Shown: piece after piece, positions 2,767 to 35,935 of the stretch
Layout: each line of letters starts with the position of its first letter
Numbering within the stretch: position 1 is the first letter of the stretch
Assembly: GCF_053078305.1 (NCBI RefSeq)
Contig: NZ_CP166879.1
DNA: 64,000 nucleotides
Direction: 5' to 3' (one strand)
The notes under the pieces: generated by a model
Databases searched by the model: none
What the model was told of the DNA's origin: nothing
The model's input: the letters and a program-made list of their open reading frames with translations, nothing else
Translations under genes and position numbers: made by a program

Positions 2767-5700
2767 TCACGAAATACTGATACCCGCCGTGGACTTCTTC
2801 ATCACGACAACCAGCAGATCGCTGATACTCGCTGTCGGGTACCATCCATTCACCAGCCAGGCAGACACAGAAAACTCCAGCGTCATATGCCCCCTTCCTG
2901 CAGGCATATCAATCACCCCTGAATACACCTGAGACTCAGCCAGCGCCGTCCTTTCAAAAAGCACCCTGCCGTTACATTTCACCATCAGCCGGCATGATGA
3001 ATAAATATCGTTATGCTCTCTCTCATGTTTAGCGCCGCTGAAAGCCACTGCCGGGATCACAATTTGCCGGTCAAAAGGCTGATCGTCATAAATCCTGACG
3101 GTAATGGTCCCCGATGGCCACCGCTCCGGTGCGCGGGAGTCCCGCGGGAAAGCCTTCCCCACGGTTTTAACAATATCGCCTTCAATCTGGTTGGCAGACA
3201 GTTTTCCAAGTATCCGGCAGTTCTGGTTAATGGTCACATTATTGAGCGTGCCCGAGTTCGCACTGATATGTCCGCTGATGTCCGCATTGCGGGCCGTCAG
3301 CCTGCCCTCCGGCGTCAGGGAGAACGTCGGGGGATTGCCGGACGAGGTGATGCTCACTGCAAACAACCGCTTCAGGAACACATCGTTCATGAACAGCTGA
3401 TTCCCCTGCGCCACAAACAGCGGCGTGGTGTTGCCGTTCTCCGGGTTAATCATCGCGATACGGTCCGCCTGCAGCAGTATATTGCTCAGGGGCTGGCCAT
3501 CAGCATCCTCAATCCCCGCACCAATACCGGCAACATACGGAATGCCGTTTTTCGTTTTCTGCACCTTCAGCATGTACAGCGCAGCCAGGTCGTTATTTGT
3601 GTCTGTCTGCACCCGCTGTATCTGCTGTATGGTGGCACTCTGGTCTTCCAGGGTTTTACTGACCGTCTGCGTGATTTCATTGCGGGTTTCGGTGATGGTG
3701 GTCTTCATCTCCGCCATCTCATCATCAAGCTGGCTGTTATCAATCAGCTCCCACATCCCCTGTGCCAGATGTGTCTTCCCGATTTCTCCTCTGAAAAAGT
3801 CCAGATACCCTTCCGCATCATTGCTGGCCCGGCCACTGGCTTCCACAAACGCAGATTTCCCCACCAGGTTGACGCTGCGCACATAAAACCAGAAATCCTT
3901 CCCCGGCTTAATGTGCGGGCCGGAGACACTCCACTGGCGGCCTGTCCCCAGATAACGGGCAGAGGTTTCCACCTGAGATGTGTCTGCGATTTTTGCCTCC
4001 GAAAACCAGAACTCAAATTGTACCGTCGGGTCATACACCGTAAGATGCGGGACCGCCGTTATCTGATAATACCCCGGCGTCAGCTCAATGCTGTCCGGTG
4101 CTGCCGGGGCGTTAATCCGGAACGTGGTGGTGGCAGGTTCGCCCTGCTGGCCGTAGCTGTTTATCGCCCTGACCGTCAGGGTGTATTCCCCGGGCGGCAG
4201 GCCACTGAAACGGTGCTCCGTATCGGCAGTGATGGCGCTGGTCACCAGGCGGCTGTTTTCACCACTGCCACTGGTCAGGCGCAGACTGAAGCGCACGCCC
4301 TTCACCACCCGCGGCGTGTCCCATTTTGCCAGCGCCATATACTGGCCGTCTGAGGCACTCACCTCCACCGTGAGGTGCTGCACTGCCGGCGGGATGACGC
4401 TGTTCAGTGAACCGGAGAGCGGCTCAAAGCGGGCCCCGTTATCCACGATGGCTTCTTTTTCCGGTACGTGCTGCACTGCCGTGATGGCAAAGGTGCCGTC
4501 CGTGTTTTCCCGGATGGAAACACAGCGGAACAGGCGACGACGCAGTGACGGCAGGGAGAGTCCCCACACACCGTATGTCTCCACGCCATCCGGCAGGGCG
4601 CTGACCTGTATCCGGTCAGGGGCGGGGTGTGCAGTGATGTCCACGCGCACCGGCTTACCGCTGCCGTTAATCAGGTTCACCGTCGATGTACCTGCTTCCG
4701 GCAGTGTCACCTCACGGTCCAGCGTCAGTGTGCGGCTGGCGGCATCGATGGACAGGATGCGTCCACCGGTCAGGGTCCCGGCATAGTCGTTATCACAGAT
4801 TTCAATGATGTCACCGGGCGTGTGCCGCAGCCCCTGTGACCCGAGCATGAAATCCACCGTCTGTGTTTCCAGCAGTTCTGTCTTTATCACCCACAGTCCG
4901 GCACGGTGGGCCTGACCGCGGCTGGTACAGCCGAACGCATCCATCTTCAGCAGATTGCGCCCGTAGCGCAGGATGGCGTCCGGGTCTTCCACCAGTTCCG
5001 TGGAAGTCTGCCAGCCGTTCTGCGGGTCAGTGTAATTCACCTCCACCGCCGTGTGCCGGTCCTTCAGGGCACTGAAGCTGTAGCGGAACCCCACGCCGTT
5101 ATCATCCACCACCACATCGCTGTTGGTGTACGGCCACACCACATCCGACGGACGGTCCTGAACGAACGTCAGCGTCTGGCCGTTCCATACCGGCATACAG
5201 CGCATCGCCGAGCAGAAATCCCCCAGGACATCCCACACCTTACGCTGCTGTGACAGGTACGCATTGAAAGTCATCCGCGGCTCTGTTCCCCCGAAACCAT
5301 CCGGGACCGTCTGGTCACAGTACTGCCCGATGGCATACAGTGCCCACTTGTCCACGTCCGGGGCCCCCAGGCGTTTTCCCATCCCGTAGCGCGGGTGGGT
5401 CAGCATGTCCCACAGGCACCAGGCCGGGTTATTGCTGTATGCCGGTTTCAGACTCCCGTCCCAGATACCGCTGTAGGTGCGTTTTTCCGGGTCATAGTTT
5501 GACGGCACCTGAATGATGCGACCACGGATATGGTAGTTCACCGTCAGCTGCTGGCCACCAAACTGCTCCGCATCCACCTGCAGCCCCACAATGGCCGTGT
5601 TCGGGTAGCACTGTTTCACATCGATGATTTCGGTGTATGACGACCACAGCGTTCTGTTCTGCAGCTGGTCCGTGGTGCTGTCCGCCGTCTCCCTGACCAT

Positions 5701-22402: not shown

Positions 22403-24064
22403 TTATATGAAAAAAACCGCATATTCTTTCTTTTTGGGCTCCGGATTCAGGGACATCAGGGATACCGCATTGAACAGCGCCATCAGCGGGTCAATTTTCC
22501 CCCGTCCGCTGGCCTGTTTGGTAATAAGGATGGCGTTACCTTTAGGCTCCACCCGGGCATTGCCAACGCACCAGGCCATCAGTGGCTGACCACCATGCAC
22601 CAGCACTCCCTCAGCCAGTTTGCGCTCGGTGGTTTTGATGGCCCCGCCCAGCTTCCAGCCCTGGCTTATCCCCACAACAATTCCGTCGGGGATCCCGGCT
22701 TCTGCCAGTGAATCCAGAATCTGCCCCACACCTGACGGGTCAATACCGATATGGTCCAGTAACTCAGCCTCATGAATACGACGCACATACTCCGCCACTT
22801 CCGCCGTGTCATCCCCGACCCGACGGACAATCGTCATGTCTCCACTGGCCACAAAATCCTGAAACCGGGATGCCTCACTCTTCCGTCTGACCACCGCGGT
22901 TTCATGCGCCCAGGCATGGCCCCAGCCCAGCCATTCGCGGGTTTCCCTGTCACGACCAATCACGTACATTCCCAGCAGATCATCCAGGCCCCCGCCGTCA
23001 ATCCCCACCGTCACCACATCAGCGCGCTGCAGGATATCGTCCAGGCTGACGCGCCTGCCCTGCTGCTCCCAGAAATCCGCACCCGCCCAGCGGTCAGAAC
23101 GCAGGGCAAGACCAATTTCCACATTGGCGTGTTTTGACATGAAGCCACGAAATGCCTCCTCACCAGCCTCCCGGGCTTTACGGTACTCCCGGTACAGAAA
23201 AGCCTCATCCACCGAATAACCGAGATTCGGGTTAACCATGGCGAGGTTTTCCATCAGCAGGTGCTCACCGCGCTCCACCATCTCCGGCGGATGCTCAAAT
23301 ATCACCGGCAGAAAGTGCGGATCATTAATTTTGCCGTCGCGCACATCCCGGGCGTACTGCAGTTTCTGTCTGAACACCCCGGCGGGCGGCTCATTCGACT
23401 GGGTGGTTGTGTACACCACAAACCCTTCCGGGCGGGAGGCAAGGCCGCCGATGGCTTCACGTAACATGTCCTCCGCTTTGTACTGCTTGCCAAATAACCA
23501 CAGTTCATCAATCAGCGTCCCCACGGACTTGATACCGGACACCGTATTCGGATCGGCAGCCACCACCTTAAGGGTGGTGTCCGTCACCCGATGGGTGATG
23601 GTCCGGATATGTGTCTGCACCTGACAGAGGTCATCCAGATCATCGTCCCGTCGTACCATATCCCTGGCAGGGTTGAAGGCGTTAGCCGCCACCTCCACGG
23701 TCGGGGCCAGAATGGTGTAGCCCGCCGCCTGCCGCCAGTTCAGTAACAGCGCCGTCATCATGATCCCGGCAGCCAGCGTGGACTTGCTGTTTTTTTTGGG
23801 TATCAGAATGAACACTTCCTTTATATGGCGTACACCGGTCTGCGCATCGTAGGAGCCAAACAGGGCAGCCACCAGATCAAACACCCACGGTGCACAGGAC
23901 TCCCCGAACGTCGGGCTGCCCGGTGCATCCACAATCCGCAGTTGTTTAAAAATCGCCAGGGCATGTGCGGCCTGGTCCGGGTAAATCGGAGCCGGAATAA
24001 TCGACAGCCCCTTTTTCAGACGCTCTGCCCAGTCCGGGCAGGCCGTGCTCCACACAGGTATCAT
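22403..24064 (-). CDS. Terminase large subunit
   Basis: 553 aa; position between small subunit and capsid gene. Confidence 0.85.
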   Translation of the reverse strand: MIPVWSTACPDWAERLKKGLSIIPAPIYPDQAAHALAIFKQLRIVDAPGSPTFGESCAPWVFDLVAALFGSYDAQTGVRHIKEVFILIPKKNSKSTLAAGIMMTALLLNWRQAAGYTILAPTVEVAANAFNPARDMVRRDDDLDDLCQVQTHIRTITHRVTDTTLKVVAADPNTVSGIKSVGTLIDELWLFGKQYKAEDMLREAIGGLASRPEGFVVYTTTQSNEPPAGVFRQKLQYARDVRDGKINDPHFLPVIFEHPPEMVERGEHLLMENLAMVNPNLGYSVDEAFLYREYRKAREAGEEAFRGFMSKHANVEIGLALRSDRWAGADFWEQQGRRVSLDDILQRADVVTVGIDGGGLDDLLGMYVIGRDRETREWLGWGHAWAHETAVVRRKSEASRFQDFVASGDMTIVRRVGDDTAEVAEYVRRIHEAELLDHIGIDPSGVGQILDSLAEAGIPDGIVVGISQGWKLGGAIKTTERKLAEGVLVHGGQPLMAWCVGNARVEPKGNAILITKQASGRGKIDPLMALFNAVSLMSLNPEPKKKEYAVFFI

Positions 24065-24618
24065 CCGTTGCCCTCATTATCATTATTCACCACCAGGCGG
24101 GGTGGTGGTGGCACCGCAAAACGGTTAGCCGCTTTTTTCGCCGCGTCACCTTTTGCCGATTTTTTACCGGCATCCCCTTTTTTGTGGTGCGTGAACTGCG
24201 CCAGTCGCCAGGCTGCATCCAGAGCCAGTTTCGGATCAATGCTGATGTTTTCCACCAGGATCCGACCCATGGCTTTCACAGGATCAGGAAGGCCGTCCTC
24301 CATGTAATCAATACCGGATAGTGGAGAGAAACTTTGCCCGTCATCCGGTGGCACTGAAACCTGGTTTTTCTTTTCCACCGGAGGAACTTCCCGGTGGCAC
24401 GCCTGCGTCTTTTTCTGCCGGTAAACAGGAACCTCATCCACCTCCACCGTCTCGCCCTGCTTACGGGCTATAAACGCGAGCACTTCCGGATCTTTTGCCA
24501 GTTGTGAGCCTTTACATCTGGCGGACTTTTCCGAGTAACCAGCCTCAATAGCAGCAGCCGTTCTGTTTTTGCCCGACATGAGCGCCAGCGCAAATTTTCT
24601 TTTTTGCGTCGTCAGCAT
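24061..24618 (-). CDS. Terminase small subunit
   Basis: Internal ATG (MLTTQKRKFALALMSGKNRTAAAIEAGYS...) with GGAGG RBS in track ORF 24061..24654. Confidence 0.7.
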   Translation of the reverse strand: MLTTQKRKFALALMSGKNRTAAAIEAGYSEKSARCKGSQLAKDPEVLAFIARKQGETVEVDEVPVYRQKKTQACHREVPPVEKKNQVSVPPDDGQSFSPLSGIDYMEDGLPDPVKAMGRILVENISIDPKLALDAAWRLAQFTHHKKGDAGKKSAKGDAAKKAANRFAVPPPPRLVVNNDNEGNG

Positions 24619-24901
24619 TCTTTCCTCCGGGGAAAAACAGAAAAACGTCAGCAATCCTCCCGGTAAGAATGGAGGCGGCAGGGAAAATGTTTACCGCTGC
24701 CCTGTAAACATTTTGCGAAAAAAAGGTATAAACATTTACCTCCCACAACGTTATGAATAAAAAGAAAAAAACGGTAAAAATCCATCAGTAGGTTATAAAC
24801 ATGTTTATAACTTCTGAAGGGGAATTTTTTCTCTGCGTGAGAGGGGGCGCGGTGTCCGGAGCGATCGTTTTTTACGCCGGATGATACCCCCCCGGGTCGG
24901 G

Positions 24902-25267
24902 TTACAGTCCGATGATGTCGTCCGCTCTGCCACTACCTCCGGACACCTCCGGCAGTGTCGGGTCCGGCATACCACCCGCCGCTTCACGAGCAGACTTTTG
25001 TCGATGGCATTCGGTACAGAGCGTCCAGAGATTCGTCTCCTCATTACCACCACCGAACTGAAGTGCAATTCGGTGATCGAGTTCACTGTCACAGAGGTCA
25101 ACCACACGACCACAGAGACAGCACTGCCCGGCATCCCTGAGCCAGATATGACGCTTGAGGGAAACACGTGCACTGCCACTGACACGACGCTGTTCACCCT
25201 TCAGAATATTCACCCGTCGGGTATTCAGTGTTTTGATTCTGCTCTGGAGTGTACGAAGCTCAGCCAT
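24902..25267 (-). CDS. HNH endonuclease (terminase-associated)
   Basis: 121 aa; CxxC...DHRIALQFGGGNEETNLWTLCTECHRQKS HNH motif. Confidence 0.85.
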   Translation of the reverse strand: MAELRTLQSRIKTLNTRRVNILKGEQRRVSGSARVSLKRHIWLRDAGQCCLCGRVVDLCDSELDHRIALQFGGGNEETNLWTLCTECHRQKSAREAAGGMPDPTLPEVSGGSGRADDIIGL

Positions 25268-25308
25268 GTAAAATCCCCGTCATAAGGCAATCAGTAAAGG
25301 AAATAAAT

Positions 25309-25509
25309 ATGTCATCGAAAAACCGGACCCGCAGAACCACAACCCGCAATATCCGTTTCCCCAATCACATGATTGAACAGATCAACATCGCCCTTGAGCA
25401 TAAAGGGTCCGGTAACTTTTCAGCGTGGGTTATTGAAGCCTGCCGGAGAAGGCTGGCAACAGATGCAACGCACCTGCGCCCGGCCAGCATGACAAATAAC
25501 GAGAAATGA
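25309..25509 (+). CDS. YlcI/YnfO-family small protein (DUF3950-like)
   Basis: MSSKNRTRRTTTRNIRFPNHMIEQINIALEHKGSGNFSAWVIEACRRRL; internal start of track ORF 25249..25509. Confidence 0.6.
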   Translation: MSSKNRTRRTTTRNIRFPNHMIEQINIALEHKGSGNFSAWVIEACRRRLATDATHLRPASMTNNEK

Positions 25510-25641
25510 ACGTTCGGTTACAGGAGCAGGTACCCACTGTCCTCCAACAATATTTCATCTTCATACCCGGCGGAACAAGACTTACCCAGCCGGGGATGTA
25601 CAGAATAACAACAGAGTGATAATTAATTTCTGATGAAATAA

Positions 25642-25989
25642 TCAGGGTGCAGAAGGACTAAAGATAAACGTTTTCTTCACGCCTTTACGCGGCCTGTCCT
25701 TCTCAAATCGCCATTTTGCCATCGCCTTTACAACCTGCTCATCAAACAGATGGTGCGGCTCTGAACGGATAAACTCAATTCGGGTGACAGTACCATCAGC
25801 ACCAATATCAAACTTCACATCAACCCGTCCCTTTATATAATTTGCCGCTGCATAGGCCGGATATTGTGGTAATGCCTTAACCAACTGTCGGGGCATATCT
25901 GTTTTATGTTGCGTACAGCCCATAACCAGAGAAGACAACAAAATAATTAACGGAAGATTTCTTTTCATTTTCATTTTCATTCCCGGCAC
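25642..25989 (-). CDS. TonB C-terminal-domain lipoprotein (moron in the bor slot)
   Basis: Signal peptide with lipobox VMGC; ...LPQYPAYAAANYIKGRVDVKFDIGADGTVTRIEFIRSEPHHLFDEQVVKAMAKWRF... matches the TonB_C signature. Confidence 0.7.
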   Translation of the reverse strand: MPGMKMKMKRNLPLIILLSSLVMGCTQHKTDMPRQLVKALPQYPAYAAANYIKGRVDVKFDIGADGTVTRIEFIRSEPHHLFDEQVVKAMAKWRFEKDRPRKGVKKTFIFSPSAP

Positions 25990-26318
25990 AGATAAGAATA
26001 AGTCTTATTCTAACAATGCCACCCTGTCGGCCATCAATCCTCTGCTTAATGGCAACGACAATTATCCGACTTAAATCACAAATCAGACACATGACATAAC
26101 AGGTCTTGCGAGGTAACACATCGTCCGGTTTCTTCCACCATCGCACCGGACCAGCGACCATGAGGGGACAACGCCGCGCTCCGTTAACGCGGTAAACCCC
26201 GGTGTGTATCGTTTTTGATTATCCCCGCACACTCGCGCAGAGGAGTCTCCCGGTCGGGCTGCGGTCTCTGTTAATGCAGGAATACGGCGACAATACCGCG
26301 CATGAATAATAAGGTCGC

Positions 26319-26543
26319 TCAACACACTGGCTGTAATGCAGCGGATACCATGCGGCATTTAGCGGCATTCATCGTATACTCAACGGTTAGCTCTTCATTC
26401 GTGGCATTCACCTGAAAGGTCCGGGAGTGTAATTGCGTACATTTACCACTGAACGAACCTTCAACAAGAACACGACCACGCTGCAAAATACGGAACGGAA
26501 TTGTTCCCTGAAAAGGCTTTACGGTTACCAATAATTTCTGCAT
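26319..26543 (-). CDS. Hypothetical protein
   Basis: Track ORF; MQKLLVTVKPFQGTIPFRILQRG...; no recognisable family. Confidence 0.3.
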   Translation of the reverse strand: MQKLLVTVKPFQGTIPFRILQRGRVLVEGSFSGKCTQLHSRTFQVNATNEELTVEYTMNAAKCRMVSAALQPVC

Positions 26544-26566
26544 GCATTCTCCGAATAACAAAAATA

Positions 26567-27040
26567 CTAGTTAATACACTGAGTGCGGATATATTCCTGA
26601 AGCATTCTCAATGCTGCCTGGTCGCTGATGATTCCGTCTCTGATACCGAGAACGTTTCGTCCAGCAACCGGAGAGAGTTCGACGGCGGCATCATTGCCCA
26701 CGCCGGAGGTGCCGGTGGCTTCACGCACGGTACCGGGGCAGGTGGCGTTGATCCGCAGGCGCTTACGACCAGCGGCAACATCAGCACGCAGAGTTTCATT
26801 TTCAGCTCTCGCATCGGCTAATTCCCTCGAGTATTTTGCATCGAGCGCAGCAACATCGCGCTGGCGCACCTGCATATCAGTAATGGTTGCGTTTGCCAGC
26901 TCCAGCTCTCTGGCTTTTTTATCACGCTGCGCTTTGTAGGTGATGGCGTTATCGCGGTAATGATTCAGCCCCAGACTAAGCGCACCACAGACCACCAGCA
27001 GAATAACGGTAAACGCGGAAAGCATTCGGTTTATGCTCAC
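26567..27040 (-). CDS. Rz: Rz i-spanin
   Basis: 157 aa; N-terminal TM segment, coiled-coil periplasmic domain; Rz1 embedded in alternative frame. Confidence 0.85.
26608..26802 (-). CDS. Rz1: Rz1 o-spanin lipoprotein (embedded in Rz)
   Basis: [36 protein letters not shown]...; lipobox, Pro-rich. Confidence 0.75.
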
Positions 27041-27168
27041 CCCAGCATCCCCGACGAAGATAACATCATCCAGCCCATGGAAAGAAAAAGAGCAACCAGC
27101 ATTAGTGAAAATGAAATGCCGATGATTACACAGAGGATCTTCGCCAGCATTATGAGTTTGTCTGACAT
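27037..27168 (-). CDS. Small membrane protein (43 aa) between endolysin and Rz
   Basis: [55 protein letters not shown]; stop overlaps Rz start. Confidence 0.45.
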
Positions 27169-27190
27169 GTTTAATCCTCCCTTCACGATT

Positions 27191-27367
27191 TCAACGCAAT
27201 GACCAGTTTTGCCAGCCCATACAGCATCGGAGACACAGCGATATACCGACCGCCACCCACTTAATAGCAAAAGCCAGTGCTCTGCTGATGTCATCAGTTA
27301 CTGGCGCTTTCAGTTCAAGGCCGTTTTTCATAGTCAACCTCAACAGAATTCGTTTATACTTTTCCAT
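27191..27367 (-). CDS. Small protein (58 aa) with C-terminal hydrophobic segment
   Basis: MEKYKRILLRLTMKNGLELKAPVTDDISRALAFAIKWVAVGISLCLRCCMGWQNWSLR; AAGGGAGAA RBS. Confidence 0.4.
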   Translation of the reverse strand: MEKYKRILLRLTMKNGLELKAPVTDDISRALAFAIKWVAVGISLCLRCCMGWQNWSLR

Positions 27368-27523
27368 GTTCTCCCTTGCCTTATCCAAGGTCAGAAACAC
27401 AAAACCCCGCTTGCTGCCAACAAACGGGGTTTTTACTTTTATTCACTTAGGTTTTGCCAGTTCGCAGGATTTCGTGTTATCCGTCCGCGTTGGCCAACGT
27501 CATTTTTCAGCAAAATATTCTGC

Positions 27524-28057
27524 TTATCTGTCGATACCCCAGCACGCCAGCGCGCTCTCCTGGTCACGACGGGATACCTGACCATAACAGTTATTTGAGC
27601 GGATACGGCAGTCTCTGCCACCGTCCTTAATCCACCAGCGAAGCGCCTCACACGCTCCCCTGCGATCTCCTGCATTAATTCGTTTATAAAACGTCGACGT
27701 GAAACACTTACCCGGGCCAATGTTGTAAGGACAGAATGACGCAATACCCGCTTTCTGGGGTTCAGTCAGTGGCACTCTGATGTTTTTCTCCACCCATGCC
27801 AGCGCCTTATCCCGTTCAATGGCGTTAACCTGGTCGCATTTTTCCTTCGACAGCTTCATGCCAGGGACGACAGGCTTACCATCCACCCGGGTGGCACCAC
27901 GGCAGATGGTCCAGATACCCGCACCATCACGGTATGCCGTGGTGTGGTTACCTTCTTTTTCGTCAAGAAACTGGTCGAGGATTTCAGGCGCAGAAGCACC
28001 TGCAGCAATCAGCGCCAGAACGACCGCTGATAAACCATAGCGGAATTTCCTGCTCAT
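27524..28057 (-). CDS. R: SAR endolysin (phage lysozyme, R21-like)
   Basis: 177 aa; N-terminal SAR/signal-anchor helix, lysozyme catalytic region. Confidence 0.9.
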   Translation of the reverse strand: MSRKFRYGLSAVVLALIAAGASAPEILDQFLDEKEGNHTTAYRDGAGIWTICRGATRVDGKPVVPGMKLSKEKCDQVNAIERDKALAWVEKNIRVPLTEPQKAGIASFCPYNIGPGKCFTSTFYKRINAGDRRGACEALRWWIKDGGRDCRIRSNNCYGQVSRRDQESALACWGIDR

Positions 28058-28061
28058 CAGC

Positions 28062-28277
28062 TTACTCTCCCCGCGCCGCCTTACGCCGGTCCTCTCTGAT
28101 TTTGAAATACAGGTTCGTCAGATATGTCAGCAGCCCAAACAGCAGACTCCCCAGCACGCCTATTGCCGCCCACTGAGACGGGGAAACCCTGTCCAGCAAC
28201 TGCAGGAACCAGTAGCCCGTTCCCACCGCTGACGTGGTGTATGACACACCTGTTGTGATTTTTTCCATCTGGTACAT
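28062..28277 (-). CDS. S: Pinholin (S21-like), dual-start
   Basis: [71 protein letters not shown]. Confidence 0.9.
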
Positions 28278-28353
28278 ACCCCGTCTCCCGCAAGCCGGAA
28301 GCTCACAACAATATAAAGACCACCGGCACACACCGATGGTCCCTTGCGCATGC

Positions 28354-28599
28354 TTACATCATCATGTCGCTGTCAGGTGTGGGGTCACCGCCATCTGAAG
28401 CACTCCCCTCACCCGCGATACCTTCCGGCTCCGGAACTGCCGGTGCGCCCAGCAGTTCATCCAGAATGGCATCCACTTCTGCATCAAGACGCGCCTCAAG
28501 GTTCTGGCGGAGTTTCTGTTTCAGTGCGCTCAGGACTTCTTCAGAGCGCAGGACTTCCTTCACTGCCTCTGCAGTGACCAGGGATGTAATTTCTGACAT
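28354..28599 (-). CDS. Hypothetical acidic protein upstream of holin
   Basis: Internal start [28 protein letters not shown]... of track ORF 28354..28773. Confidence 0.35.
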
Positions 28600-28639
28600 G
28601 GGATTTTCTCGTCGAAAGGTGTGATTAAGAAAGTTGCAG

Positions 28640-28819
28640 CTAAATGAGCGGCTCTTCGGGTTTGCTTCCGGCTGACTGACTGGCGCTGATTTTCTCTGCG
28701 GCCCTTTTATCAATCTGCCTGCGCCAGAAATCGCGCACTGCCCTGTACCCACCCGAAAGAAGATACAGCACACAGACCGCCGTACAGAAGTACAGCATTA
28801 ACTGGTTCAGAAATGTCAT
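28640..28819 (-). CDS. Small membrane protein (59 aa)
   Basis: Read by eye: MTFLNQLMLYFCTAVCVLYLLSGGYRAVRDFWRRQIDKRAAEKISASQSAGSKPEEPLI. Confidence 0.3.
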   Translation of the reverse strand: MTFLNQLMLYFCTAVCVLYLLSGGYRAVRDFWRRQIDKRAAEKISASQSAGSKPEEPLI

Positions 28820-28969
28820 GGTTTCTCACCGTGATAGTTGACATGATTTACTTATTTTTGTAGAAAAACACCGCAGACTTCGGTGTCATCATGGTCGTTT
28901 TACCAGCCGCCAGCATTCATGTAGTGGACACAGTTCATCCCTTTCCTTCATTGCTGGCGGCCTTTTTTA

Positions 28970-30937
28970 TCATGCCGCGGCGTCCGCGTTGTTCACTTCC
29001 ACCTTCACACTGTCAATCAGCAGCGTATATGTCGCCGCCTTTGATATGCCTGTCAGTTGCAGTTTGTCCGCCGCCCCTGATGCCGGAGATTTCACCAGTG
29101 TGAACGGTGTACCCCGTTTCTCATCCAGTACCGGCGTCACCTGAATGCTGTTGTTTCCGGCAAACTCAAAAGCCAGTGTGTGCCATCCGTTATCAAAGAC
29201 CCCGAACGTATCCAGCTTCGCATTCTGCTTCTTGTGGTACATCGCGTTCAGGTTCGTCGCATCCGTCTGCAGGAAGAAGGACATCAGCATGTCGTTGCCT
29301 TCCTCTGCCAGCGTCACTCCCTCCGGCAGGGACGACAACTGCCAGTAAATACCCAGGGCAAACTGATTCGGCACCAGTGCGCCCGGCACCTTAAACCGCA
29401 CGCTCACACGTCCGCCTTTCTTCAGCAACTCTGCCCCCTTCCCGGCGGCATCATGCTCCAGAAACCAGATGTGGCTTTCCGGTTTGTTCAGTTGCAGGGC
29501 CTTACCACCGGTGGCACCCTCATCACTGACCACGGCCTCAGCGATGTTTTTATCAACACTGTCTCCGCTCGCCGGTTTGTGATAATAGCGCCAGCCCTGT
29601 GATGCCAGGTCTTCACCGGACGCCAGCAGACTCATCAGGGTTCGGTTACTGACCGGGGCTTCCGGCTCTCTCTCCGGGCCTTCACCGGAAGGTCCGGTGG
29701 GCTTCACCGTATCAGGCTGTTTTCCGGTAATGAATTCAGCGGTTCTCCCGGCATGCACCAGAATCGCCGTTGCCAGACGGTCGGAAATAATCCCACGGCG
29801 AGCCCATGAACTGAAATGGCTGGCCCTGTCCACAGATGTCCAGGTCTTCTGGTCATTACGCCACTTTGAACCGTAATAACCGACGGCTTCCAGGTCCGGG
29901 TCTTCTGCCGGGTCATTGGTCTGCACATTCGCACCATTCTCATCCGTCATTAACGGTACAAAGAAAATGTTCTGCGACTCCTTACCCTTATACCCTCCGT
30001 ATACTGATGCATACCCTTCCGCATGACGCTGCTTCCAGAAATACGTTGTGTCCCCGCAAATCCACGGTACCGCTGATGCGCTGCCTCCTGTGCTCTGTGA
30101 TGCCTGACCGGCAAGCTCCGTTCTGAACTGATTCACCATCGCACTAAACAGCCCCGGATGCTGCGCATGCGTCCCCACTGCCGCATCACCTTCTCCCTGC
30201 ATCCACACCACCGCAAGCAGACGGTTTTTCGGGTTCTTCGCCAGTGCGGCTTTAGTCCGGCTCACCAAATCCTGATACAGCGGCTTACCCACACCCCAGC
30301 GCAGTGAATTTTCCGATGCACCGGCTGATTCGTTGTATGTGCCGTCTGCACCCGTTGTGAATGCCGAAGCACCACGGCAGCACGGAACCAGCAGAATGCC
30401 CGCATTCGCCGGTATAAACGGCAGCAGTTTTTTGGCGATATGCAGCCCCTGCCCCACGGTTCCGTACTGCCCCTTTGACAGGTCCGCTTTCGGATGGTTA
30501 AGACGGCTCATGTCCTGCACATCATGCAGACAATGGTCCGCCGGAATAATGTCGTTATACTTACAGGCGGCACCGCCCGGTGTCACCGTACTGCGACGCG
30601 CCAGCTGCTTAATACGCGGGTCCGGACGGTCATATGTCTCCGGCAGCGGAAGGCCTTCACCATACGACATGCCGTTTGACTGCCCTGCCAGAACCACAAC
30701 AAAGTAATACTCCGGGTCGCTGGTGGCGCTGATTACTGTGCCTTCTCCATCCGACGGCTTCACCACCACAGGTGTGGTGACATCACCTTCCGCCGCAATG
30801 GCCTGCATCAGGGTATAAGGCGTGATGGCCACCGGGCTGCCAAATGGCTGCCACCCCTCCTTCAGTTTTTGAGTCAGTCGCTCCGCAAGGTCTGACGGCG
30901 ACGCCGCCCTGACCACGTCATAGTGTTTAAATGCCAT
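28970..30937 (-). CDS. NanS-p-type sialate O-acetylesterase (SGNH/DUF303 with C-terminal lectin-like domain)
   Basis: 655 aa; VVLAGQSNGMSYG motif; position between the toxin slot and the holin as in Stx prophages. Confidence 0.8.
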   Translation of the reverse strand: MAFKHYDVVRAASPSDLAERLTQKLKEGWQPFGSPVAITPYTLMQAIAAEGDVTTPVVVKPSDGEGTVISATSDPEYYFVVVLAGQSNGMSYGEGLPLPETYDRPDPRIKQLARRSTVTPGGAACKYNDIIPADHCLHDVQDMSRLNHPKADLSKGQYGTVGQGLHIAKKLLPFIPANAGILLVPCCRGASAFTTGADGTYNESAGASENSLRWGVGKPLYQDLVSRTKAALAKNPKNRLLAVVWMQGEGDAAVGTHAQHPGLFSAMVNQFRTELAGQASQSTGGSASAVPWICGDTTYFWKQRHAEGYASVYGGYKGKESQNIFFVPLMTDENGANVQTNDPAEDPDLEAVGYYGSKWRNDQKTWTSVDRASHFSSWARRGIISDRLATAILVHAGRTAEFITGKQPDTVKPTGPSGEGPEREPEAPVSNRTLMSLLASGEDLASQGWRYYHKPASGDSVDKNIAEAVVSDEGATGGKALQLNKPESHIWFLEHDAAGKGAELLKKGGRVSVRFKVPGALVPNQFALGIYWQLSSLPEGVTLAEEGNDMLMSFFLQTDATNLNAMYHKKQNAKLDTFGVFDNGWHTLAFEFAGNNSIQVTPVLDEKRGTPFTLVKSPASGAADKLQLTGISKAATYTLLIDSVKVEVNNADAAA

Positions 30938-31149
30938 GAATCCTCCCGGTCGGGATAATGTTGTGAGTCAGATAAGGGGCGGGCTGAAGTCCGGAAGTTA
31001 CAGGACAATGACAGAAGGAAGACTACAGCCCGCAATACGAAAAAGGCCGCGCAGTTGCGCAGAGTGATTACTGTCGGGTATTATTCGCCAGCTGAAAAAT
31101 TGATTACTTCACGTTTTGTTGTTTATTCCTTGCTGCCCGCATCTCACCA

Positions 31150-31960
31150 TGCGGGCTTTTTTTATCCATAAGAAAGCCCCTCCGGAGAGGGGCTGGAGTA
31201 GCGCTATGTACCGTTCATTGCATGATGCCGGGTGCCTCCCGGTGAGTTCAGCCCGGTGCCACCGAACCCGCGTCATTCTCGCTAACGATCATCAGAGACC
31301 ATACCGTACACCAGCCGCCCCTCCGCACAGGGGGATTCATCATGCAGAAATTTTTTAACAAATTCTCAGTCGGGAAGACAACCTTCAACTGACTGAATTG
31401 TGAGCAACATAGCATTTAACGGGGAACCTGTTTTCTGCAGTAAAAAGGCCCACCGGAGCGGACGGGCCTGGAAGGATAGCGGTCATGTGATGCCGGTTTC
31501 CCGGTAACTCAGCACCGGTATCTGAGTCAACGTTTTCTCTACTGGGTCATTTCCGATACGCCCTGCCTGCTGACAGGCTTTCATCACATCTGAAAATATA
31601 GCACCCTGACTGATACTGTAGTACCCAAGGTTCCAGAAACTGTGATGTATCCGGCACAGAAAAGCCCCTCCGGAGAGGGGCTGACGCTGCGTATCTGTAT
31701 CATCATGCGCATGGTGCCGGGTGCCTCCCGGTGAGTTCAGTATCAGCACCTGAACCCGCACAGAAAGGATAAGGGATGTAACCAAACACCTGTCGCTGAT
31801 ATGCCCCTCCGCTCAGGGGGATTCACCATGCCAGTTTCTTTTAACAAACTCCCCGCAAATCAGACAACTGTCAACCGTCTGAATTGTGAGACATTTAAAA
31901 TTTTCGGGGCAACAGGAAGACAATCATCACGACACCGGCAACCAGCGACCGGCACCAGAT
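31150..31960. repeat. Two diverged copies (~490-bp spacing) of a structured non-coding element
   Basis: Shared segments AAGCCCCTCCGGAGAGGGGCT, TGCCGGGTGCCTCCCGGTGAGTTCAG, CCCCTCCGCxCAGGGGGATTCA, CTGAATTGTGAG at ~31174/31664, 31223/31713, 31317/31804, 31394/31879. Confidence 0.6.
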
Positions 31961-32956
31961 TTAACGTATGTGCACACAACCTGAACCGGCATCAAAAAAC
32001 AAACCGTGCACTGACAGAAAACGGGAAACCTCCGTCCGCTGATCATCACTCATTAAGGACCACACAAAGGCGTTATGCTCATCTTCAAGTTTCCGTCTTC
32101 TTGTTTGCCTTACAAGCAACTCAGCCGTCACCTGTACAATGTCAATGACCTCCTTCTCTTCAGCAATGTACGGCCTGTTCCAGTTGTCTGTGTTAATCTT
32201 CTCCGTCACCGGCGCTGACTTTTTGCAAGTTTCCCCATTAAACCCGACGCCATAAACAACAACATCATCGCTTTGCTTTTCGTTATCAATAATGACGAAT
32301 AATACAGAAACCGATGTATCAGCGAACCCGCCTGAAATCTGAACCAACTCAACAACGCGGTTGCCAAAATACTGACGCATTGCCAGCTCACCACGCCTGT
32401 AACCAACCCCGGGAAAGCACAAAAAAAATGAAAATCTTGCCTTCATGCTCGCCAGAACATAAAACGCGTCATCCAGAACACCGGAGGTCTTTTTATAAGG
32501 CATCATCGCTGAAATCTTCTCCCTGATATCCGCGCTCTGTGCTTTGTACTGTAGCGAAAAAGGCGGATTCATGATGACACAATCGAACGTGTCCGTGTCA
32601 CTGACATCATCGATGGCGTTGAAGAAATTTTCATTGACCGTCTTCACTGTGGCATCCGGGAAATTATCCGGGATATGCACCAACGGAGAGGCCTGTATAT
32701 CCACAGCATACAGACTTCCCACCGTGAGAAACTGCTCCAGTTGCCCGGAGCCACACGCACCATCAAAAATACTCAGGGGCAGATCACCACAATATTCCCG
32801 CACTTTTTCAGCGACAAACCGACGCAAAGGAACGGACGTGATGTACTCTGCGTATTTTCTGGCGACATCGCGATTATTGGACTCCTGAAAAACCATTTGT
32901 GAAAGGCTCTGTGGTTGATATGCGCCGGGCGTGGCGCGGAGGCAAAAAAGGCCCAC
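31961..32956 (-). CDS. DNA N6-adenine methyltransferase, gamma-like motif order (orphan)
   Basis: FDGACGSGQL (motif I) followed by VIMNPPF (motif IV); start may be internal at ~32896. Confidence 0.7.
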   Translation of the reverse strand: MGLFCLRATPGAYQPQSLSQMVFQESNNRDVARKYAEYITSVPLRRFVAEKVREYCGDLPLSIFDGACGSGQLEQFLTVGSLYAVDIQASPLVHIPDNFPDATVKTVNENFFNAIDDVSDTDTFDCVIMNPPFSLQYKAQSADIREKISAMMPYKKTSGVLDDAFYVLASMKARFSFFLCFPGVGYRRGELAMRQYFGNRVVELVQISGGFADTSVSVLFVIIDNEKQSDDVVVYGVGFNGETCKKSAPVTEKINTDNWNRPYIAEEKEVIDIVQVTAELLVRQTRRRKLEDEHNAFVWSLMSDDQRTEVSRFLSVHGLFFDAGSGCVHIR

Positions 32957-32981
32957 AAAAGCGAGCCAGGAAAAATAAGTG

Positions 32982-33058
32982 TGGTGCGTTGTACTGGATT
33001 CGAACCAGTGACCGATTGCTTAGAAGGCAATTGCTCTGTCCGGCTGAGCTAACAACGC
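32982..33058 (-). tRNA. argO: tRNA-Arg (anticodon TCT), argO-like
   Basis: Cloverleaf read by eye; anticodon loop CTTCTAA; GGTTCGAATCC T-arm; CCA end. Confidence 0.8.
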
Positions 33059-33071
33059 AGTGTACAGATAA

Positions 33072-33148
33072 TGGACCGCCATCGAGGACTCGAACCCCGC
33101 GCAACCAGCTTCGAAGGCTGGCGCTCTATCCCGATGAGCTAATGGCGG
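33072..33148 (-). tRNA. argN: tRNA-Arg (anticodon TCG), argN-like
   Basis: Anticodon loop CTTCGAA; GGTTCGAGTCC T-arm. Confidence 0.75.
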
Positions 33149-33155
33149 TATGTGA

Positions 33156-33231
33156 TGGTGGCCCTTGCTGGATTTGAACCAGCGACCTGGCGATTATGAG
33201 TCGCTCGCTCTCACCACTGAGCTAAAGGGCC
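33156..33231 (-). tRNA. ileZ: tRNA with CAT anticodon, ileX-like (tRNA-Ile2), ileZ-like
   Basis: GGCCCTTTAGCTCAGTGG...GACTCATAATCGC...GGTTCAAATCC...CCA; close to E. coli ileX. Confidence 0.75.
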
Positions 33232-33271
33232 GGGCGCAGGATAATAACGGTACGTAACTAATCCTGCAATA

Positions 33272-34330
33272 TCATCCGTTCTGACTGGCTAAATCCTGAA
33301 CTTCCCTGACCGTCTGCTCAAAACGTTCAGTCTCCAGCTCAACGCCAGTTGCACGACGCCCCAGCGCCATCGCTGCTTTGACTGTCGAACCCGACCCCAT
33401 GAAAAAATCTGCAACCAGGTCACCCGGACGACTGCTCGCGCTGATTATCTGCTGCAGCATTTCTGCCGGTTTTTCGCACGGATGTTTCCCGGGATAGTAC
33501 TGCACCGGTTTATGCGTCCACACATCGGTGTACGGCACCTGCGCCGTCACGCCAAAATACCGCCGCAGATGCTTATATTCACTCTGCAGTTCCGTATAGT
33601 GTCGGTTCAGTTCACTGTATGTGCTGACCAGTTGGTGATGTGGCTTTTCCAGTTCTCCGCGCTGATGCTTCTCTTCTGCCACCCGGGCAAACAGCGCCTG
33701 TAATTTCAGATAATCGCTTTCGTCCGGTAGCTGCCACTGACTGGCACTGAACCAGTGCGACACCATGTTTTTCTTTCCTGTGGCATCAGCAATCTGTTTT
33801 GCCGTTATCCCCAGGGCAGCACGTGCATCACGAAAGTAAGCAATCAGCGGGGCCATCACATGCTGTTTCAGTGCCCTGCCCTTCGCCTCATACCCGGCAT
33901 CTTTCGGACGATACGGCCCCTGATAATGTTCCGCGAACAGAATGCGCTCTGTGGCGGGGAAATACGCCCTCAGGCTTTCCTTGTTGCACCCGTTCCAGCG
34001 TCCGGACGGCTTCGCCCAGATAATATGGTTCAGCACACTGAAGCGTTCACGCATCATGATTTCAATGTCAGATGCCAGGCGATGGCCACAGAACAGGTAA
34101 AGACTTCCGGCAGGTTTCAGCACCCGCCAGAACTGCGCCAGACACTGGTCCAGCCACTTCAGGTAATCATCGTCGCCCTTCCACTGGTTATCCCAGCCCT
34201 CAGGCTTCACTTTAAAGTACGGCGGGTCCGTGACTATCAGGTCAACAGAATTTTCGGGTAACGACCGGATAAATTCCAGGCAGTCGGCGTTGATTAACTC
34301 ACAACTGGATATTTTTACAGTATTAAGCAT
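33272..34330 (-). CDS. DNA methyltransferase, beta-class (N6-adenine or N4-cytosine), orphan
   Basis: 352 aa; DPPY (motif IV) near N-terminus, FFMGSGST (motif I) near C-terminus. Confidence 0.85.
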   Translation of the reverse strand: MLNTVKISSCELINADCLEFIRSLPENSVDLIVTDPPYFKVKPEGWDNQWKGDDDYLKWLDQCLAQFWRVLKPAGSLYLFCGHRLASDIEIMMRERFSVLNHIIWAKPSGRWNGCNKESLRAYFPATERILFAEHYQGPYRPKDAGYEAKGRALKQHVMAPLIAYFRDARAALGITAKQIADATGKKNMVSHWFSASQWQLPDESDYLKLQALFARVAEEKHQRGELEKPHHQLVSTYSELNRHYTELQSEYKHLRRYFGVTAQVPYTDVWTHKPVQYYPGKHPCEKPAEMLQQIISASSRPGDLVADFFMGSGSTVKAAMALGRRATGVELETERFEQTVREVQDLASQNG

Positions 34331-34480
34331 GGATCATTAAGCCTGTCTCTGATAGGCTCATTCTGCTTTTGCGCAAAGCAGTGGGCCTGAGGTTTGCTTG
34401 TGATCCGGACGCATGAGCAGATGGCTGGTGAGTGCCCCTAACACCCACCAGCCGCCCATTTACCACAAATAAAAAAGCCT

Positions 34481-34678
34481 TCAGGACTGAAGGCGTCTGT
34501 AACAACCGAACTGATAGTCTGCCAGACCCGCCATAACAAGCTGGGTCAGTATTAACTGGCAGCGTTCACGTGAAAGATAAGTATTCTGCGCAATCTCCCC
34601 GACTGTCGCCGGTTCGGTGGCACTTAATTCATTAAACACCACTCTGGCGGTTTCTGTCATATCCTGCTGTTTCAGCAT
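34481..34678 (-). CDS. Small hypothetical protein (possible DNA-binding)
   Basis: Internal start MLKQQDMTETARVVFNELSATEPATVGEIAQNTYLSRERCQLILTQL... Confidence 0.3.
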   Translation of the reverse strand: MLKQQDMTETARVVFNELSATEPATVGEIAQNTYLSRERCQLILTQLVMAGLADYQFGCYRRLQS

Positions 34679-34801
34679 GTCTTTTTCCCTTTTCCGGTTA
34701 ACGTGACACACCAATAACTCTTGTCAAAAAAGCCAGCAAGCTGAAAGACCGGTATTCACCACCACCAGCGCGTTTACTGTACTGACGAGATTTTCGGACA
34801 T

Positions 34802-34826
34802 AAAAAAAACCACCTGGCGGTGGTTT
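34802..34826 (-). terminator. tR-prime-like intrinsic terminator downstream of Q
   Basis: Minus strand CCACC-GCCA-GGTGG followed by T8. Confidence 0.6.
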
Positions 34827-34837
34827 TTTCTTACTTT

Positions 34838-34885
34838 GCCATCGCGTACAAAATCGGCAAAATATCAGATTTATACGAAACATAC
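34838..34885 (-). promoter_or_regulatory. Candidate late promoter pR-prime
   Basis: Minus strand TTGCAA, 17 nt spacer, TATGTT between Q stop and the terminator. Confidence 0.35.
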
Positions 34886-34890
34886 GCGAT

Positions 34891-35580
34891 TTAATTGACT
34901 TTTGCAATATCTCGTCGTGAAAAGGTCGCTTTTTGTTGCGCTCTTATTTTCACGGAGCAAATCAAGGATTCTCTATCGAGGCGCTTAAAAATATCGCACA
35001 TCTCACGCCAGTAGTTCGCATAATTATGGCTCCAGTTATCAGGCTTAACTCCACACAGTCTGGCAAGCTCCTGTCTCTGGTAGACCTCACACCCGGTAAC
35101 CCATCCTCTGACATCCTGTGCCGCCAGCCAGATCAACTTCTTCACACGCTCCAGCGTTTTCACTGCAATTTTTCTGGAGCCGGACTGAGTTTTAAATTCA
35201 CTCCACACCCACTGTGTTATGGTGACCTGATCTTCCCAGCAAACATTTCCACTGTAGCACCACAGTAACCACGCCTTCTGATGTTCTTCCAGTTCCAGAA
35301 CGGCACGCCGCCACGATGATGTTGCAAACTCAACCGGACTGACCAGAGCAATTGACGTCCCTTTCGCCAGTGATTGTTTGCCCGGGATCGGTGGATTATC
35401 CCGCGTGATCATTTTTCCGGTTACCTCATCGCGGTAACGAATTTTTTTACGTCTGTAACGCCCTGTATCGAACAGGGCATTTTCCTGCCAGGCTTCCAGC
35501 TGGCCTTTTGTCGACCCACTGAGATCCGCAGTGGCAATCATGAGTTGCTCACGAACAAACTGTAAATACTGGCTATTCAT
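34891..35580 (-). CDS. Late-gene antiterminator Q-like protein
   Basis: 229 aa at the Q position (downstream of rusA, upstream of promoter/terminator pair); Cys-containing; family not verified. Confidence 0.5.
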   Translation of the reverse strand: MNSQYLQFVREQLMIATADLSGSTKGQLEAWQENALFDTGRYRRKKIRYRDEVTGKMITRDNPPIPGKQSLAKGTSIALVSPVEFATSSWRRAVLELEEHQKAWLLWCYSGNVCWEDQVTITQWVWSEFKTQSGSRKIAVKTLERVKKLIWLAAQDVRGWVTGCEVYQRQELARLCGVKPDNWSHNYANYWREMCDIFKRLDRESLICSVKIRAQQKATFSRRDIAKVN

Positions 35581-35935
35581 GCACACCCACCTCTGTAATT
35601 CTTATCTCCAGCCGTCCACCAGATACTGGCTGGCCACGTACAATATTGATTTCATCAAACTGCTCATCGTCCATTAACAACCCCGCGTGCGTCAGCGCAT
35701 CCAGCGGTGCTTTCAGAATATTGTCCAGGTCACGGCGGCGCTTATCCGGTGGCTCTGCAATAATTTTTATTGCCAGCCGTCCGGACAGGCTTAATTTCAG
35801 TCGCTGCTGGCGAACAATAAGCGCCACTGCCCGGCGATAACGCTCCCCGGCTTTTGATACAAAATATGTGCTGCCACGGCGTCGCCAGTAAGTGTTCACC
35901 GTCGGCGGGTAAGGTAAAACCAAATCTATGAGCAT
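35573..35935 (-). CDS. rusA: Holliday junction resolvase RusA
   Basis: 120 aa; ...DKRRRDLDNILKAPLDALTHAGLLMDDEQ...GGRLEIRITE. Confidence 0.9.
   Translation of the reverse strand: MLIDLVLPYPPTVNTYWRRRGSTYFVSKAGERYRRAVALIVRQQRLKLSLSGRLAIKIIAEPPDKRRRDLDNILKAPLDALTHAGLLMDDEQFDEINIVRGQPVSGGRLEIRITEVGVHE

Follow-up and report, generated by a model that had tools for sequence, protein, structure and literature searches.

Two small open reading frames (ORFs), here called ORF-A and ORF-B, lie between the endolysin gene R and the spanin gene Rz in the lysis cassette of an E. coli prophage within a 64,000-nucleotide stretch of DNA (contig NZ_CP166879.1 of the NCBI RefSeq assembly GCF_053078305.1), referred to below as the window. 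Judged from sequence conservation, both represent families of genuine protein-coding genes for small hydrophobic peptides within the lysis cassette. These families are under purifying selection and modular in their occurrence, and members of the ORF-A family are preceded by a terminator-like hairpin. ORF-B is intact in the window and ORF-A is a frameshifted allele. As to their role, we tentatively propose that the products are accessory single-span inner-membrane peptides, made only late under control of the antiterminator Q, that contribute a non-essential adjustment to the membrane steps of lysis. The coordinates of all features are collected in Table 1.

Coding status and selection

ORF-A and ORF-B are regarded as real genes because both match PHROG profiles, both show purifying selection in their own reading frame, and both are conserved at the protein level across Escherichia and Salmonella. 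Intact ORF-A aligns to phrog_1115 with residues 1–60 on positions 8–67 of the 67-position profile (E = 1.4e-42), the allele in the window with residues 1–44 only (E = 4.4e-29), and ORF-B matches phrog_4906 over its full length (E = 3.3e-20); PHROG 1115 and PHROG 4906 are both families of unknown function. The ratio of nonsynonymous to synonymous substitution rates (dN/dS), computed from substitutions counted along a minimum spanning tree that joined 27 (ORF-A, including Salmonella) or 19 (ORF-B) distinct DNA sequences, was 0.26 for ORF-A (p = 4e-14) and 0.45 for ORF-B (p = 3e-4), compared with 0.6–2.1 in the other two sense frames. Among the antisense frames, only the one sharing the wobble position was comparably low (0.34 for ORF-A and 0.47 for ORF-B), as expected. 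An initial annotation of this DNA had proposed two small membrane-protein genes at this place and had named conservation in related prophages as one point to be checked; it was looked for and found, in the form of the PHROG matches and of purifying selection, and the coordinates and ribosome-binding motifs given there for both frames (AAGGGAGAA for ORF-A and AAGGGAGGA for ORF-B) were correct.

Searches against other collections gave little. Neither peptide had a Pfam or NCBIfam match at E ≤ 1, the PADLOC defence hidden Markov models yielded no family at E ≤ 1 for either of them, and BLASTP of ORF-A and ORF-B against the holin S, R, Rz, DUF1378 and each other returned nothing significant, the best match to the S21-type holin having E = 0.024 over 16 residues. 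A profile of the ORF-A superfamily, searched against 1.84 billion representative proteins, recovered 33 proteins, nearly all of them 22–128 aa long and none a larger homologue with a known domain; three matches of 536–653 aa (E ~1e-5) look like chance strand-like matches and were set aside. An Rfam scan of positions 25000..30000 at E ≤ 1 produced three sub-threshold chance matches only, of which that to the rimP leader merely picks up the hairpin upstream of ORF-A. We also rejected an antisense ORF of 129 aa (27209..27598, plus strand), which is open in several relatives, as its frame has a dN/dS of 0.81 versus 0.26 for ORF-A; it also runs through the terminator, and its sequence is not protein-like.

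ORF-A, a frameshifted member of PHROG 1115

The initial annotation described ORF-A as a gene for a 58-aa protein; its coordinates, its Shine-Dalgarno (SD) sequence and its standing as a real coding family hold, but the native product has 60 aa and the 58-aa form arises from a frameshift. Alignment with phage PhiR12_1 and with intact copies places a 2-nt insertion at approximately 27241..27246, and the NCBI Prokaryotic Genome Annotation Pipeline (PGAP) marks the identical locus in genomes of Shiga toxin-producing E. coli (STEC) as a 'frameshifted' pseudogene. In the allele of the window, the C-terminal half of the membrane helix, which is conserved, has been lost from the 58-aa product, and with it most of the invariant residues (S45, Y49, G50, A52, L54, A57 and K59); going by its sequence, the gene is most likely dead here. 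Exactly this 58-aa frameshift product is present in databases (P0054), a further protein (P0104) represents an independent frameshift allele, and ORF-A is intact in 145 of 150 loci.

Native ORF-A has a basic N-terminal head (10 K+R versus 4 D+E) and a best 19-residue Kyte-Doolittle hydropathy of 1.88. In an AlphaFold2 model built from 30 sequences, it forms a single long helix over residues 25–59 with a predicted local distance difference test score (pLDDT) of about 89, preceded by 24 N-terminal residues that are of low confidence and poorly defined (pLDDT 73; predicted template modelling score, pTM, 0.36). According to this model, the protein is a basic head followed by helix 25–59, the C-terminal part of which is the predicted membrane segment.

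The 5' untranslated region of ORF-A is conserved between E. coli and Salmonella. At the other end of the gene, intact ORF-A terminates in ...KLVIALKS and its relatives in ...RWW, and the C-terminal codons of family members double as the SD of the next gene, RWW-stop reading GGTGGTGA. In phage GER2 (L170:1975-2003) and in Salmonella loci (L162-L164), the conserved SD AAGGGAGAA is followed by a mini-ORF of 8 codons (ATGGGTAGGGAGGTTCTTTCCCTGTGA in GER2), and the GTG at which the ORF-A relative starts overlaps its stop codon; the mini-ORF could encode a leader peptide or could merely be an alternative start.

ORF-B and its junctions

ORF-B consists of a short N-terminus with Lys, one strongly hydrophobic segment and a Ser/Gly-rich tail ending in ...LSSSGMLG. 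The proposal that it encodes a peptide with a single transmembrane (TM) segment is borne out by a Kyte-Doolittle hydropathy of 2.91 at residues 11–29, and EDL933_1392, its homologue in phage 933W, was predicted to be an inner-membrane protein with one TM helix (PMC4765031).

The junction between the stop codon of the intact ORF-A frame and the SD of ORF-B is kept in 124 of 146 related loci. Downstream, an overlap of the ORF-B stop with the Rz start had been claimed, which is true for the GTG start of Rz at 27040 but does not apply to the ATG at 27025 chosen by PGAP. In relatives, ORF-B is joined to different Rz N-termini, with the Rz ATG 8–10 nt past the ORF-B stop, and in several variants of this junction Rz has an SD of its own. 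The fusion of the ORF-A stop with the ORF-B SD, together with the abutment of the ORF-B stop on Rz, suggests that ORF-A, ORF-B and Rz would be translationally coupled.

The hairpin upstream of ORF-A and transcription of the late operon

The hairpin bounding the ORF-A module has a predicted folding energy of –21.1 kcal/mol on the sense strand (z = –4.5; none of 200 shuffles was as stable) and of –14.3 kcal/mol on the antisense strand. It had been noticed as a hairpin following R with runs on both sides; the runs are indeed present, but it is better placed as an element 33 nt upstream of ORF-A, to which we assign it rather than to R because it travels with ORF-A. In all contexts examined, a GC-rich hairpin with a U-run, differing in sequence, was located 30–55 nt upstream of the start codon of the ORF-A family member. 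In Salmonella it stands after ant in one locus (L162) and after R in another (L164), and the sequence from hairpin to ORF-A is homologous in both. When 11 of these hairpins were aligned, 89% of the cells were paired, compared with 41–55% for a partner slid by 1–3 columns; 6 of the 15 pairs had changed on both sides (20 double-change cells), and none of 500 shuffles matched the double-change cells, the percentage paired or the covariation score.

A consensus scan of positions 24000..35200, from Q to the terminase region, found no sense-strand sigma-70-like promoter; such a scan recognises only sigma-70 consensus sites and may overlook promoters that are weak or of another type. Between R and ORF-A none was found by scan or by eye, and a transcript starting there would meet the hairpin. 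Terminator-like sites number 22 in the same region, where 11.8 ± 3.3 would be expected; most are on the sense strand, and the hairpin before ORF-A is the strongest in these 11 kb. Since no sense-strand promoter was found and sense-strand terminators are enriched, with the strongest one before ORF-A, we infer that the genes are expressed late only: the terminators before ORF-A and before the holin gene would pass only Q-antiterminated polymerase, Q-modified polymerase would be the sole source of transcripts through the lysis cassette, and the peptides would be made only late in lytic growth. Further upstream, a near-identical pair of terminator-like sequences (AGCCCCTCTCCGGAGGGGCT) is present at 31175..31194 and 31663..31682.

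Distribution and gene arrangements

The complete E. coli genomes contain ORF-B at 4,620 places (1,721 of 5,426 genomes, up to 11 copies per genome), and 191 phage records contain it as well, the majority of them Stx1a- or Stx2a-converting phages, in which the order is R, ant, ORF-B, Rz (e.g., P13374 ORF53). ORF-A occurs in 14 phage records only, with relatives in Salmonella. Among the IMG/VR loci the order S-R-A-B-Rz is dominant (110 of 156), next to the arrangements S-R-A-Rz, A'-B-Rz, ant-B-Rz and A-B-A'-Rz, and the loci scored as having ORF-B only have a different small ORF in front of it (A', phrog_6632, with a product ending in QLIVAIKG). ORF-B stands directly before Rz in all loci with downstream DNA, except for a few variants with an intervening truncated ORF-A copy or another very small ORF.

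The holins and endolysins that accompany ORF-A relatives differ, and the endolysins are of three types (PF00959 lysozyme, GH19 and M15 peptidase). In Salmonella, a relative stands directly before Rz in cassettes that combine a lambda-type holin with a GH19 endolysin, and also in cassettes containing ant together with a lysozyme and a class II holin; phage GER2 has a 50-aa relative ending in RWW directly before Rz; and in phiSTEC1575-Stx2k two holin genes and an M15 endolysin gene are followed by an ORF-A relative and then by a gene for a 60-aa lipoprotein. The latter gene (L169:2149-2331, phrog_7528) has an ATGA overlap with the ORF-A relative and encodes a lipobox (LLVGC) and a 30-residue mature part with three Cys, and no Rz-like inner-membrane spanin (i-spanin) is annotated in the stretch retrieved.

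Hairpins also accompany small ORFs elsewhere in phage genomes. In a contig of the JGI metagenome 3300007140 (L172:2923-3903), a lambda-like major capsid gene is followed by three copies of a 48-nt repeat that contains a hairpin, and small single-helix ORFs lie between and after the repeats, several of them ending in RWW and one being an ORF-A relative. Another relative (L171:2930-3189) follows tail-fibre genes and has its own upstream bidirectional terminator. From these sequences, the unit of hairpin plus small ORF looks like a recurring mini-cassette.

The lysis cassette and its surroundings

The components of the cassette were confirmed by Pfam on the minus strand (Table 1), and the approximately 480 bp that had been reported between R and Rz measured 483 nt from the R stop to the Rz GTG, in the order hairpin, ORF-A, ORF-B. 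The GC content of the insert is 0.45–0.46, versus 0.54–0.55 in S, R and Rz. The initial annotation presented this layout as a departure from the canonical order of R directly followed by Rz, a view that did not survive comparison, with at least 80% of the 651-bp stretch being present in 988 of 5,426 complete E. coli genomes; the stretch is 100% identical to prophages of six complete STEC genomes.

The holin carries the dual-start motif MYQM. The N-terminus of R (MSRKFRYGLSAVVLALIAAGASAP) looks like a signal-arrest-release (SAR) domain by its sequence, with three basic residues among the first six (MSRKFR) and a best 19-residue Kyte-Doolittle hydropathy of 1.91 at residues 9–27, and R of phage 933W has served as a SAR endolysin (PMC9239132). 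The likeness of R in the window to the 933W type is taken from its RefSeq name (rrrQ at some near-identical loci) and from the N-terminal sequence, not from an alignment.

Table 1. Features of the lysis cassette and of its late-operon context in the window
Feature	Coordinates	Strand	Remarks
ORF-A, 58 aa	27191..27367	-	Frameshifted allele of a 60-aa PHROG 1115 protein
ORF-A Shine-Dalgarno, AAGGGAGAA	27369..27377	-	Partly within a small predicted stem, CCUUG/CAAGG
ORF-B, intact, 43 aa	27037..27168	-	WP_001280924.1; PHROG 4906
ORF-B Shine-Dalgarno, AAGGGAGGA	27175..27183	-	
Intact-frame ORF-A stop TGA (27183..27185) fused to ORF-B Shine-Dalgarno	27175..27185	-	Putative translational-coupling junction
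GC-rich hairpin, 15 bp, with flanking A-run and U-run	27401..27433	-	Intrinsic-terminator type; 5' boundary of the ORF-A module
Lysozyme R, 177 aa	27524..28057	-	933W/RrrQ type; PF00959 1e-25
P21/S21-type class II holin (pinholin type), 71 aa	28062..28277	-	PF04971 9e-33; RefSeq: class II holin
Terminator-like hairpin, 13-pair stem then T-run	28315..28344	-	Directly upstream of the holin gene
Rz i-spanin	26567..27040 (GTG start) or from ATG 27025 (PGAP)	-	PF03245 1e-39
Rz1 outer-membrane spanin (o-spanin) lipoprotein	26608..26793	-	Embedded in Rz; PF06085 5e-21
Late antiterminator Q	34891..35586	-	PF06323 7.8e-84; ~7.5 kb upstream, same strand
tR'-like terminator	34809..34821		Near Q

Several neighbouring genes deserve mention. 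Right after Rz, a 74-aa ORF (26319..26543, minus strand) matches only positions 100–172 of the 291-position profile phrog_2571 and is, by this partial match, probably a remnant of a larger gene, though RefSeq lists it as a hypothetical protein. Further downstream, a 108-aa lipoprotein-like protein (25642..25968, minus strand) has a TonB C-terminal domain (PF03544, 5e-15; RefSeq 'TonB family protein') at the position that bor has in lambda. Downstream of Q and of a tRNA-Met/Arg/Arg cluster (32982..33231), at the stx position of Shiga toxin (Stx) phages, methyltransferase-like genes are found instead (30900..34400, minus strand); the prophage in NZ_CP027312, elsewhere identical, is different here, the divergence lying upstream of the esterase gene.

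Proposed role and alternative explanations

In the explanation that we put forward as possible, the low-GC insert between R and Rz would consist of two independent accessory modules, one formed by hairpin, SD and ORF-A and the other by ORF-B, the product of which would be an N-in peptide amounting to little more than one membrane helix. Made late from coupled genes, the peptides would accumulate in the inner membrane beside the pinholin, the tethered SAR endolysin and the i-spanin, so that their likeliest targets would be pinholin triggering, endolysin release or spanin action; a modulating role in lysis is our guess. A terminator placed before the gene, as is also the case for the holin, fits a product whose leaky synthesis in the lysogen has to be avoided, and this favours a membrane-active role at the time of lysis over lysogenic conversion.

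Several observations weigh against such a role. Both genes are accessory and dispensable, since the cassette of the K-12 prophage Qin lacks them, rrrQ abutting rzpQ with nothing between, and phages lambda and 21 lyse normally without either. The ORF-A family is not tied to lysis genes, as members also follow major capsid or tail-fibre genes, sometimes in tandem, and ORF-A in particular is dispensable to the prophage because it is frameshifted here and, independently, elsewhere (P0054 and P0104). Neither peptide has the charged basic C-terminal tail of holins, a family match or similarity to S, R or Rz, and the limits of the promoter scan apply to late-only expression as well. We argue that any effect would be modest, given the relatives outside lysis cassettes and the tolerated frameshifts.

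Alternatively, the genes could be moron-type cargo unrelated to lysis, hitch-hiking at late-operon junctions and serving, for example, superinfection exclusion at DNA entry or the modulation of a host membrane protein, an explanation we hold to be rather unlikely. It has a precedent in HK97 gp15, a small moron protein of the inner membrane by which superinfecting phage is excluded. It would agree with the presence/absence polymorphism and low GC of the insert, with its replacement by or combination with ant in Stx phages, with the ORF-A relatives that follow capsid and tail-fibre genes or form tandem arrays, and with the very narrow taxonomic range of the family (33 representatives among 1.84 billion proteins). 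Exclusion, however, needs expression in the lysogen, which is unlikely with no own promoter found and a terminator upstream, and PADLOC gave no match. The genes could also be selfish or near-neutral filler, kept by linkage and as translational-coupling leaders for Rz, with the act of translation rather than the peptide being what matters. The fused and abutting junctions, the C-terminal codons that double as the next SD (RWW-stop = GGTGGTGA) and the tolerated frameshift alleles are what one would expect of such leaders, but a dN/dS well below 1 in the ORF frame and a membrane helix with invariant residues are not, an SD proper to Rz is present in several of the junction variants, and in K-12 Qin Rz follows R with no leader ORF at all; we consider this improbable.

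Least probable, in our estimation, is that ORF-A belongs to a unit resembling type I toxin-antitoxin systems, in which a toxic small hydrophobic peptide would be kept in check by an antisense RNA of about 75 nt that spans the ORF-A SD and terminates at the bidirectional hairpin. In size and hydrophobicity the peptide resembles type I toxins, on the plus strand the hairpin is followed by a good U-run, and a promoter-like sequence from which this RNA would start (TAGTCA-N18-TATACT, 27331..27360, plus strand) lies inside the 5' end of ORF-A, with TGGTCA-N18-TATACT in L171. Yet such promoter-like sites occur at chance frequency (2 versus 1.8 expected and 7 versus 9.1 expected), the motif falls on codons that are themselves conserved (K-Y-K and L-T-M), so that its conservation is uninformative, and no comparable motif was seen by eye in L172; moreover, the hairpin is far more stable on the sense strand (–21.1 versus –14.3 kcal/mol), there was no Rfam match, and a promoter for the toxin gene itself would be lacking.

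The idea of accessory membrane peptides that adjust lysis can be taken further, to a class of accessory lysis regulators, gated by terminators and not recognised before, in lambdoid and Stx prophages, in which small bitopic peptides would bind the pinholin, the SAR anchor or the Rz helix and shift the time of lysis, and the unit of hairpin plus small ORF would be mobile between late-operon junctions. We regard this bolder version as unlikely.

Significance

Existing annotation already lists both genes as hypothetical proteins in thousands of genomes, those of Stx phages among them, and our literature search found no paper describing either of them. ORF-B is not described in a survey of 279 Stx-phage lysis cassettes (PMC8136144), nor are the two ORFs in the spanin census, and in the translatome paper on enterohaemorrhagic E. 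coli the homologue of ORF-B in 933W serves solely as a control protein matched for length. Most sequenced phages of the Stx1a and Stx2a kinds carry ORF-B immediately before Rz, and about one third of complete E. coli genomes contain it, often in multiple copies. It is through phage lysis that Shiga toxin is released; should ORF-B tune lysis, it would give new access to the kinetics of that release, and if the reading as a class of lysis regulators were true, the timing and amount of Stx release would also shift. If ORF-B has no measurable effect, it is one more small prophage hitch-hiker. The ORF-A module with its leading terminator would be a small, clean example of how potentially membrane-active genes can be confined to Q-dependent expression.

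Comparison with known systems

Type I toxins (Hok, Ldr, Ibs, TisB and ZorO) resemble ORF-A and ORF-B as hydrophobic single-helix peptides of less than 60 aa that are often prophage-borne, and differ from them in that ORF-A and ORF-B have no family match or own promoter and are embedded in a polycistronic late operon. The lambdoid morons (HK97 gp15, lambda bor and lom) are extra genes between late-operon genes that deviate in GC and are patchy in distribution, often encoding small membrane proteins, and classical morons are expressed in the lysogen, with a promoter of their own and a terminator downstream of the gene. The insert likewise sits between late genes, deviates in GC and is patchily distributed, whereas the consensus scan found no sense-strand promoter of its own and its terminator is upstream, not downstream. 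Unlike spanins, the peptides of 43–60 aa have no lipobox or periplasmic domain, and the true Rz/Rz1 pair follows downstream.

Like holins, both peptides are small, carry one or more predicted transmembrane domains (TMDs) and are encoded less than 500 nt downstream of R. Antiholins (lambda S107, S21-71 and T4 RI) and ORF52 of BSPM4 (PMC11657625) are also small, are co-made with the holin and act as nonessential tuners of timing; S107 and S21-71, however, are N-terminally extended holin isoforms, whereas ORF-A and ORF-B lack similarity to holins, and the holin in the window already has its own dual start (MYQM).

The releasin gp25 of phage Mu is a small membrane-tethered non-holin encoded near endolysin and spanin genes, which helps a SAR endolysin with a basic N-terminus leave the membrane (PMC9239132), and R in the window shares such an N-terminus with the client of gp25. 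Its architecture is otherwise: gp25 has 99 aa, an N-out/C-in orientation and an anionic cytoplasmic domain of 73 aa; ORF-A is laid out the other way round, its basic head preceding a C-terminal TMD, ORF-B lacks a soluble domain, and neither matched DUF2730 in Pfam. Unlike the pairing of gp25 with a SAR endolysin, relatives of ORF-A are also found with GH19 and M15 peptidase endolysins.

LydD of phage P1, an accessory pinholin that is not strictly required (PMC9025707), has 84 aa, two TMDs and a C-terminus with five arginines, whereas ORF-A and ORF-B each have one TMD and lack a charged C-terminal tail, a contrast drawn from the published description of LydD; ORF-A and ORF-B match no Pfam family. 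The likeness lies in the arrangement of the genes: lydD and lydE, as ORF-A and ORF-B, are small membrane-protein genes directly downstream of a SAR-endolysin gene (lyz in P1), within the same late operon and with overlapping starts and stops (PMC9025707).

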